The notes under the pieces are model-generated. The model did no database searches. It worked only from the letters and a program-made list of their open reading frames with translations, and was not told where the DNA came from. A DNA stretch of 64,000 nucleotides, from assembly GCF_058153355.1 (NCBI RefSeq), contig NZ_CM177019.1. One strand, written 5' to 3'. A program made the translations under genes and the position numbers. This document shows positions 55,822-56,460 of the stretch, one piece after another (positions within the stretch are counted from its first letter, which is position 1; every line of letters starts with the position of its first letter).

Positions 55822-56460
55822 CTATGCGGCCTCGGAAGGAAGTCCAATCATCTTATTCAAATCTTCTACCCGTAAAGCAGGAAGTGCTGTACTTGCTTTA
55901 TCTGCTTCTTTTGGTAGCAATTCTTTGCTTTCAGGCCAAACTTCAATAAGTCGCTTAACTGTTGTGACTGAGTTCAAAGCAGCCCATACATTTGATTCGA
56001 TATCCTTTTTCCTGGCTTCAAGTTTTTGTTGCAATGCGCAGATTTCATCAAACCTTTTTGTTATTTCGTGTTCTGCGCTAAACATGCATTTATCTCTGGT
56101 CGGAGTAGGGAGCAATATATCTTCGCCGTTGCCGTCTTTCCCATGTGAATACCATCCAACCCTTCTGCCAGATACAGTCAGATAAATTGAAGTAGAACGA
56201 ACATCGCATGAGTAAAATGAACATCCCATCTTTTCAAGTTCTTCACTTATAGCTACCAACTTGGATGATAACTGATCCACTTCCTCAGTTTTCTTCTTCC
56301 CGCCAAACGCAACAACTCTGGCGTCAAGTGCAAGCTGGTTCTTTCGCTTTGTTACTTCTTCAAGTTCAGTGAACACCCCGGACTTAATTAAAGCGTTGCG
56401 TGCTATTACTTCTTTTATTCTCGTTGTTAAGCGGATTGATGACATATTAATTCCTCTCAA
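55822..56460 (-). CDS. hypothetical protein immediately downstream of the N-like gene
   Basis: 212-aa ORF with no recognised motif; start uncertain. Confidence 0.4.
   Translation of the reverse strand: MRGINMSSIRLTTRIKEVIARNALIKSGVFTELEEVTKRKNQLALDARVVAFGGKKKTEEVDQLSSKLVAISEELEKMGCSFYSCDVRSTSIYLTVSGRRVGWYSHGKDGNGEDILLPTPTRDKCMFSAEHEITKRFDEICALQQKLEARKKDIESNVWAALNSVTTVKRLIEVWPESKELLPKEADKASTALPALRVEDLNKMIGLPSEAA

Follow-up and report, generated by a model that had tools for sequence, protein, structure and literature searches.

Organization of the locus

The window analyzed in this study is a 64,000-nucleotide stretch of contig NZ_CM177019.1 (RefSeq assembly GCF_058153355.1), which includes, at approximately 48.3-64 kb, only the left arm of a lambdoid prophage. 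The gene of interest lies in the leftward early operon of this arm, between the N antiterminator gene and cIII, among the following features:

56507..56851, minus strand: N antiterminator gene (Pfam N_peptide, E 2.4e-32; PHROG 271, 'anti-termination protein N-like'), sharing the pL transcript
56446..56506, minus strand: leader from the N stop codon to the ATG, with an RBS-like GAGAGGA at 56458-56452 and no hit in the promoter scan
55822..56445, minus strand: Nmad5-family coding sequence (open reading frame, PF18757, PHROG 1965, dN/dS of approximately 0.3, 624-bp homologs); a TTG start would add five doubtful codons
55804..55833, minus strand: putative weak terminator-like hairpin over the stop codon, followed by a T-run (TATTTTTGG), from a consensus scan
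55744..55783, minus strand: strong RNA hairpin with a 14-bp core stem and no U-tail, in the Nmad5-cIII spacer upstream of the cIII thermoregulator
55576..55729, minus strand: cIII with its 5' thermoregulator RNA (Rfam RF01804 Lambda_thermo, open reading frame, RefSeq annotation of homologous loci)

The minus-strand reading frame is uninterrupted over 55822..56460 and would encode 212 aa if read from the TTG at 56460, with 46 nt separating its start from the stop codon of the upstream N gene. The start codon is most likely the ATG at 56445, giving a product of 207 aa, because GAGAGGA is placed 6 nt from this ATG and the homologs in mEp235 and RefSeq are annotated at 624 bp; the same motif overlaps the TTG, which is left without an RBS of its own. 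The gene is real and under purifying selection, as seen from a Pfam match of 241.7 bits (gathering cutoff of 27) and a median dN/dS of 0.30 between the window allele and 35 distinct related alleles, none of which contains an internal stop codon. Its G+C content of approximately 0.40 is similar to that of its operon neighbors. The initial annotation had described an unrecognised gene of 212 aa; the reading frame stands, but the product is likely 207 aa long and the family has already been named Nmad5.

The same annotation placed the gene first after N in the leftward early operon, a position confirmed by the N_peptide gene upstream and by cIII and Kil downstream. The 46-aa reading frame at 55576..55716, which we take to be lambda-cIII-like, is preceded and partly overlapped by the Lambda_thermo element (RF01804 at 55671-55729, 88.5 bits, E 9e-22), and is followed by Kil (Pfam Lambda_Kil, E 1e-19); past Kil lie a 66-aa PHROG 1723 reading frame, a Sak4-like ATPase, an HNH endonuclease, an SSB-like protein, and Abc2. 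A consensus scan of 55300-57300 returned only three sigma-70-like sites, all of them (56971-57264) located where the N reading frame begins or farther upstream. No such site was found between N and the Nmad5 gene, and the gene should for this reason be silent in a lysogen, to judge from the sequence.

Two RNA elements at the 3' end of the gene differ in their standing. Terminator-like sites such as the one over the stop codon are not in excess in the region (3 observed vs. 2.4 in shuffled sequences). The segment 55717-55845, which contains the hairpin at 55744-55783, folds at -37.2 kcal/mol (z of -3.8), and none of 200 shuffles was equally stable. This hairpin coincides with the usual end point of similarity to other prophages; it may act in RNA processing or stability, or simply mark a recombination boundary.

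Family identity and occurrence

The Pfam match to PF18757, whose full name is 'nucleotide modification associated domain 5', has an E-value of 1e-71 and is full length, with residues 9-208 of the 212-aa reading frame aligning to profile positions 1-206 of 206; the 207-aa form scores 241.8 bits. The protein also matches PHROG 1965 (E 3e-82), a family without annotated function, and scans against Pfam, PHROG, NCBIfam, and PADLOC returned nothing beyond Nmad5 and PHROG 1965. The earlier statement that the protein has no recognisable motif is thereby overturned, all the more as NCBI RefSeq already names its homologs, among them copies that are 95-99.5% identical, 'Nmad5 family putative nucleotide modification protein'. 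As judged from these profile matches, the gene is a member of an already known and already named family.

At a threshold of at least 90% nucleotide identity, the gene is carried by 210 of 5,426 complete E. coli genomes (approximately 4%), with a best match of 99.5%. The nearest phage copy is mEp235_037 of Enterobacteria phage mEp235, a copy annotated as hypothetical that is 94% identical, occupies the same slot, has the same length, and is likewise single-domain; all of the near-invariant residues of the family described below are present in the window protein. The two phages differ in what follows, with an Erf-SSB-Exo module in mEp235 vs. Sak4-HNH-SSB here. More broadly, the family comprises 858 clusters at 50% identity (E up to 1e-3), with relatives in phages of gamma-, beta-, and alpha-proteobacteria whose motifs are strongly conserved. 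PF18757 is the sole domain in each of the 120 matches listed (of 210), in proteins of approximately 200-250 aa, and the window protein, at 207 aa and within the early operon of a lambdoid prophage, fits this stand-alone type. Domain fusions were considered as a clue to function and dropped, given that these listed matches are all single-domain. A scan of viral contigs with the family profile recovered close lambdoid relatives only and served to define the module boundaries.

Within the window, the gene is an ordinary accessory gene of lambdoid prophages and of small significance in itself. The added value of its analysis lies in the argument that the family name probably misdescribes Nmad5, and in the convenience of the lambdoid copy for finding what the protein does.

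An exchangeable module in the post-N slot

Similarity between the window and related prophages (81 alignments) breaks at two preferred points. The upstream break falls at 56500-56509, at the N stop codon, in 47 of the 81 alignments, and the downstream break at 55740-55749, approximately 75 nt past the Nmad5 stop codon, in 56; the exchanged unit is therefore approximately 760 bp and consists of the leader with its RBS, the coding sequence, and the 3' spacer. This module was seen behind at least two types of N or behind Nun, always between N/Nun and cIII, and upstream of Sak4-SSB, Erf-SSB-Exo, or Gam-Bet-Exo modules. With three different recombination modules as partners, the Nmad5 module is independent of the recombinase type.

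In lambda, ral and ea10 occupy this N-proximal slot between N and cIII, as do ral and gene 17 in P22, and all have accessory status. The Nmad5 gene shares their map position and accessory status, but has no sequence or family relationship to any of them (Pfam, PHROG, NCBIfam).

The gene is also dispensable, as shown by the viable deletion of the Dhillonvirus homolog discussed below and by its disruption in nature. In a prophage of E. coli O121:H19 16-9255 (L101, 2439-5688), two IS3-family elements arranged in tandem interrupt it and leave it a pseudogene, with a DUF2528 gene between the split gene and cIII; the same split match (query residues 40-212 plus 1-42) recurs in several deposited Stx2a-converting phages (LC6160xx). 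Of the accessory function originally proposed, the exchangeable and dispensable single-gene module in the post-N slot is thus upheld, whereas its moron or exclusion part found no support, as weighed below.

Predicted structure and conserved residues

An alignment of 130 diverse Nmad5 members, with a mean column identity of 31%, was used for structure prediction, which the initial annotation had suggested. The resulting AlphaFold2 model is confident (pLDDT of 91.3, pTM of 0.81) and predicts a long bundle of helices into which a beta-hairpin is inserted. The main helices span residues 8-22, 24-47, 50-72, and 127-158; the insert, at approximately residues 76-125, corresponds to the variable region of Nmad5; and short helices at 163-169 and 171-176, a disordered linker at 185-189, and a last helix at 194-200 complete the model. 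Comparison of the fold with solved structures returned no relative, a result that may be compatible with a new catalytic fold. The original reading of the gene as accessory had been set against homology to a core replication or recombination protein; none was found by Pfam, PHROG, NCBIfam, or structure comparison.

The conserved positions cluster toward the two termini of the protein. The N-terminal positions are R5-L6, K/R11, I14, N17-A18, K21, G23, R35, R43, and G48-G49, and the C-terminal positions are T161-T162, K164, L166, W170-P171-E172, E175-L176, P178, L188-P189, L196-N197, and G201-L202-P203; R5, R43, G48, G93, T162, L166, W170-P171-E172, L176, P178, and G201 are near-invariant and N197 is invariant. 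These residues are structural or charged in kind, and no conserved constellation of His, Cys, or Asp was found across the 130-member alignment, so that the predicted bundle, at a pLDDT of 91, comes without catalytic-looking conserved residues. The window protein contains all of the signature residues (R-L-T, R43, G48, T162, L166, WPE, L176, P178, N197, and G201-L202) and deviates at one position, with L40 where 80% of members have E. In the model, the N-terminal R-L-T and C-terminal T-T motifs would pack together as one conserved 'head', consistent with isolated beta-bridges at residues 5 and 162.

Two readings of these motifs as DNA-binding folds were tried and rejected. An HTH reading of A-x-L-x-x-V-T-T-V-K-K-L had been prompted by a spurious alignment with RIIB and is not supported by Pfam scans of the 130 members (E up to 10), in which two members weakly matched one wHTH family (0.04) and the other recurrent matches were to coiled-coil or other helical families. 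A ribbon-helix-helix reading of the R-L-T strand and the two following helices found no matching RHH profile, and the monomer model is already confident. The whole protein is mildly basic (pI of 8.3).

Genomic contexts and the base-modification question

The family reportedly was defined computationally by Iyer and colleagues in 2013, by association with modification genes. The later description of nmad5 as 'a DNA modification enzyme' (PMC11846954) rests on this computational association only. The association is absent from the present prophage: no modification enzymes were found among the early-operon genes scanned in the left arm, with no hydroxymethylase, kinase, aGPT-Pplase, or methylase in the operon by Pfam or PHROG, and none is annotated in the complete mEp235 genome. 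It is present in M6-like phages. Association with modification genes is a contextual and not a sequence criterion; membership in the family therefore stands, whereas the implied function is not transferred.

Approximately 14 independent contexts of Nmad5 were compared. Relatives were found in the early or replication regions of many phages that are unrelated to one another, virulent as well as temperate. In N4-like Shigella phage B2, the gene order is DNA polymerase, ThyX, Nmad5, two unknown genes, AAA ATPase, and SSB. Yuavirus and Vojvodinavirus carry Nmad5, sometimes in tandem, directly upstream of the dUMP hydroxymethylase gene; the thymidine hypermodification cluster ends there, and DNA polymerase follows. 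The gene lies between helicase and Holliday-junction resolvase in Jilinvirus ECO1230-10 and immediately ahead of replication protein O in Vibrio phage Athena1. Among temperate elements, one prophage (L089) has the order CI, Nmad5, ..., PDDEXK, Enc34 ssDNA-binding protein, PolA, and in a second element (L096) Nmad5 follows CI, with DUF4406 and an MT-A70 methylase nearby. Phage Bas95 and Vibrio phage D445 place it amid many small early genes, and in Dhillonvirus it lies within the head-gene cluster, but in the opposite orientation. The common denominator of these contexts is early expression and closeness to DNA metabolism, with no universal neighbor gene across the approximately 14 contexts. 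The idea of a conserved partner gene was rejected; thymidylate-synthase-type genes are adjacent in two lineages only.

The association with modification genes is strongest in phage M6. Nmad5 of the M6-like phages (M6 ORF056, SN1_019) belongs to the same family and is likewise an early gene beside replication genes, but it is situated in a thymidine hypermodification cluster for which no counterpart was found in the left arm here or in mEp235; by tblastn against M6 and PAE1, only the C-terminal 87 residues align. In M6, the steps that lead from 5-hmdU DNA to the mature base were reconstituted with gp51-gp54, and Nmad5 (ORF056) was never included (PMC8989533). Combined with the lack of modification genes in the left arm here and of annotated ones in mEp235, and with a model that does not resemble an enzyme, this makes a catalytic role for Nmad5 unlikely, though possible. 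The labels 'nucleotide modification protein' and 'DNA modification enzyme' draw only on gene neighborhood in some phages. They fit neither the predicted fold nor the conserved residues, and they do not suit the many phages that carry Nmad5 but no modification genes.

An annotation in Pseudomonas phage Lydia was observed alongside these comparisons. Two tandem genes (PaL_00001 and PaL_00002, at 125-1346), situated upstream of the dUMP hydroxymethylase gene, are both annotated '5-hmdU DNA kinase domain protein', and the second matches Nmad5 by tblastn. Because the M6 kinase is a separate gene, gp54, encoding a P-loop kinase (PMC8989533), the kinase label on at least the second tandem gene looks like an annotation error.

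Tmn escape in Dhillonvirus

The family has one experimentally characterized genetic interaction. Escape of Dhillonvirus phages from the Tmn defence system has been traced to one amino acid change in Nmad5 (K216E in PhiSMA8 and K296E in PhiSMS22), and reversion of this change brings back Tmn sensitivity (PMC11846954). Deletion of nmad5 is viable, yet gives no Tmn escape, and the wild-type gene could not be cloned and is apparently toxic (PMC11846954). As the deletion leaves Tmn sensitivity unchanged, the link to Tmn is either indirect or a gain of function.

The Dhillonvirus proteins belong to the same Pfam family (the 254-aa UDS3lw homolog has an E-value of 3.6e-54) and share the C-terminal TTVKK-WPE-LN..IGLP region, which is 31% identical over 100 residues; they differ in a larger middle insert, in an N-terminal extension of approximately 80 aa in PhiSMS22, and in the location of the gene, which is part of the early operon here. 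Residue 216 of the 254-aa Dhillonvirus-type homolog is the second K of T-D-K-K-L-I-K-A-W-P-E and aligns with R165 of the window protein, a mapping that assumes that PhiSMA8 numbering equals that of the 254-aa homolog and with which the 80-residue offset of PhiSMS22 is consistent. The R165 column holds K, R, or Q in 117 of the 130 members, and the preceding column holds K in 99. Since the escape substitution falls on the second basic position in TTVKK, the motif best conserved in Nmad5 would appear to behave as an interaction surface.

A 2026 preprint reports that T2 RIIB, an early non-essential protein, activates Tmn directly (PMC13001434). Like Nmad5, T-even RIIB is early, non-essential, and genetically linked to Tmn, but the two are non-homologous: RIIB has an N-terminal HTH and is described as membrane-associated (PMC13001434), and Nmad5 shows neither feature. 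Homology to RIIB was considered and rejected, as hhalign of the 130-sequence Nmad5 profile against T4 RIIB gave a probability of 0.25% over 16 columns. Identification of the real target of Nmad5 would help explain how Tmn immunity senses phages and would remove a misleading annotation.

Proposed function and alternatives

The preferred reading, offered tentatively as the leading possibility and not as a probable account, is that Nmad5 in this prophage acts early, as an accessory protein without catalytic activity, by binding DNA, the replication or nucleotide-metabolism machinery, or a conserved host factor. Its gene would be transcribed with N from pL and the product so made only on prophage induction or during infection. 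The protein would take the form of an elongated helical bundle with a conserved and partly basic head, assembled from the R-L-T strand, helices 1-2 (R5, K/R11, K21, R35, R43), and the C-terminal TTVKK, WPE, and LN..IGLP segments. This head would bind one of the above partners, in the case of a host factor one conserved across Proteobacteria, and the binding would assist or protect phage DNA metabolism in lytic growth, while the same conserved surface could be read by host immunity (Tmn). Binding to DNA itself is suggested solely by the conserved basic residues; the pI of 8.3 and the lack of a recurrent DNA-binding profile among the 130 members argue against it. The preferred reading as a whole must also contend with phages in which Nmad5 is found among small host-takeover genes and with its place inside a structural module in Dhillonvirus. 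Taken across the family, the chances come closer to even that Nmad5 is misnamed, in that it would represent a pan-proteobacterial-phage family of non-catalytic helical proteins, with a fold so far absent from solved structures, whose TTVKK/WPE head engages DNA, the replication apparatus, or a conserved host factor and is also read by the membrane NTPase immunity system Tmn. If this is true, the lambdoid copy, a single-gene module in the genetically tractable pL operon, would offer the simplest route to the target.

The neighbors of the gene in the operon act on host proteins, with cIII targeting FtsH, Kil targeting FtsZ, and Abc2 or Gam targeting RecBCD. A dedicated counter-defence or host-takeover protein, inhibiting a conserved host nuclease, repair enzyme, or immune sensor and having no direct role at the DNA, would suit the slot between N and cIII, the position of ral in lambda, among host-inhibitor genes; it would also suit a gene that is dispensable and readily lost, that lies amid many small early genes in Bas95 and D445, and whose product is predicted to have a non-enzymatic helical fold with one conserved surface. 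The toxicity of the cloned Dhillonvirus homolog and the altered outcome with Tmn on a point mutation (PMC11846954) point the same way. However, in several virulent phages Nmad5 belongs to clusters of replication or nucleotide-metabolism genes and not to host-takeover regions, and the strength with which its motifs are kept among phages infecting gamma-, beta-, and alpha-proteobacteria would demand a very conserved target. Deletion of nmad5 left Tmn sensitivity unchanged, and neither a similar PADLOC-listed protein nor an annotated function for PHROG 1965 lends this account a precedent; it is regarded as doubtful, though as the main rival of the preferred reading. The separate idea that the protein is a component of a defence system was dropped, as it has no PADLOC match.

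Unlikely, by comparison, is a genuine modification factor, whether an enzyme of new fold or a specificity or scaffold subunit working here with host enzymes. Such a role would follow the definition of the family through modification genes, and it would accommodate the positions of Nmad5 adjoining the dUMP hydroxymethylase gene in the hypermodification cluster of M6-like phages, adjoining ThyX in the N4-like phage, and near DUF4406 and the MT-A70 methylase in L096. It is opposed by the lack of partner enzymes in the prophage left arm or the complete mEp235 genome, by the reconstitution of the M6 steps from 5-hmdU DNA onward without Nmad5, by a helical-bundle model without conserved residues of a catalytic type, and by the occurrence of Nmad5 in many phages not known for DNA modification. 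The moron or superinfection-exclusion gene suggested in the initial annotation, acting from the prophage against other phages, is the least credible of these accounts and can be given very little weight. Its appeal lies in the N-adjacent position, analogous to that of ral, sieB, and gene 17 in lambda and P22, and in the exchangeable nature of this one-gene module, whose 3' end carries a terminator-like hairpin; yet the gene has no promoter of its own by the consensus scan and lies inside the repressed pL operon, its base composition is like that of its neighbors, and no transmembrane or known exclusion or anti-restriction domain was found (Pfam, PHROG, NCBIfam, PADLOC). Moreover, the family is common in virulent phages (N4-like, Yuavirus, Vojvodinavirus, Jilinvirus), which have no lysogenic state, and its presence in strictly virulent phages points to a role in lytic growth and not in lysogenic conversion. 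The remaining weight falls to something else altogether.

Other features of the window

An IS4-like element with a 448-aa transposase reading frame is present in the window as two 100% identical copies of 1,427 bp, at 57213-58639 and 46585-48011. The copies are flanked by separate direct target duplications, CTCTCCGGGAAG for 57213-58639 and CCCCTATGTGACC for 46585-48011, and therefore represent independent simple insertions and not a rearrangement. The copy at 57213-58639 is nested inside a putative IS66-family element (approximately 57190-61000), the reading frames at 58427-59035, 59032-59379, and 59399-60970 (523 aa) having been read by eye as presumably of the IS66 family. With the pL/N region on one side and the genes at 61147-63580 on the other, this nested block parts the early-left operon from the remaining immunity region; because of this separation, the prophage may be defective.

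The HNH endonuclease gene (54028-54648, minus strand; PHROG 374, E 1.5e-63) lies between the genes for the Sak4-like ATPase and the SSB-like protein and overlaps the 3' end of the Sak4 gene. It was matched in none of 80 related loci, including those with the same Sak4-SSB module, and the Sak4 and SSB genes are directly adjacent in the O121:H19 genome; the HNH gene looks like a free-standing homing endonuclease insertion. Elsewhere in the window, a 239-aa reading frame (51908-52627, minus strand) joins Ead/Ea22-like, dATP/dGTP pyrophosphohydrolase, and DUF551 segments in one frame (Pfam E-values of 4e-19, 2.5e-27, and 8e-22, respectively), and mosaics of this kind are typical for the exo-xis region.
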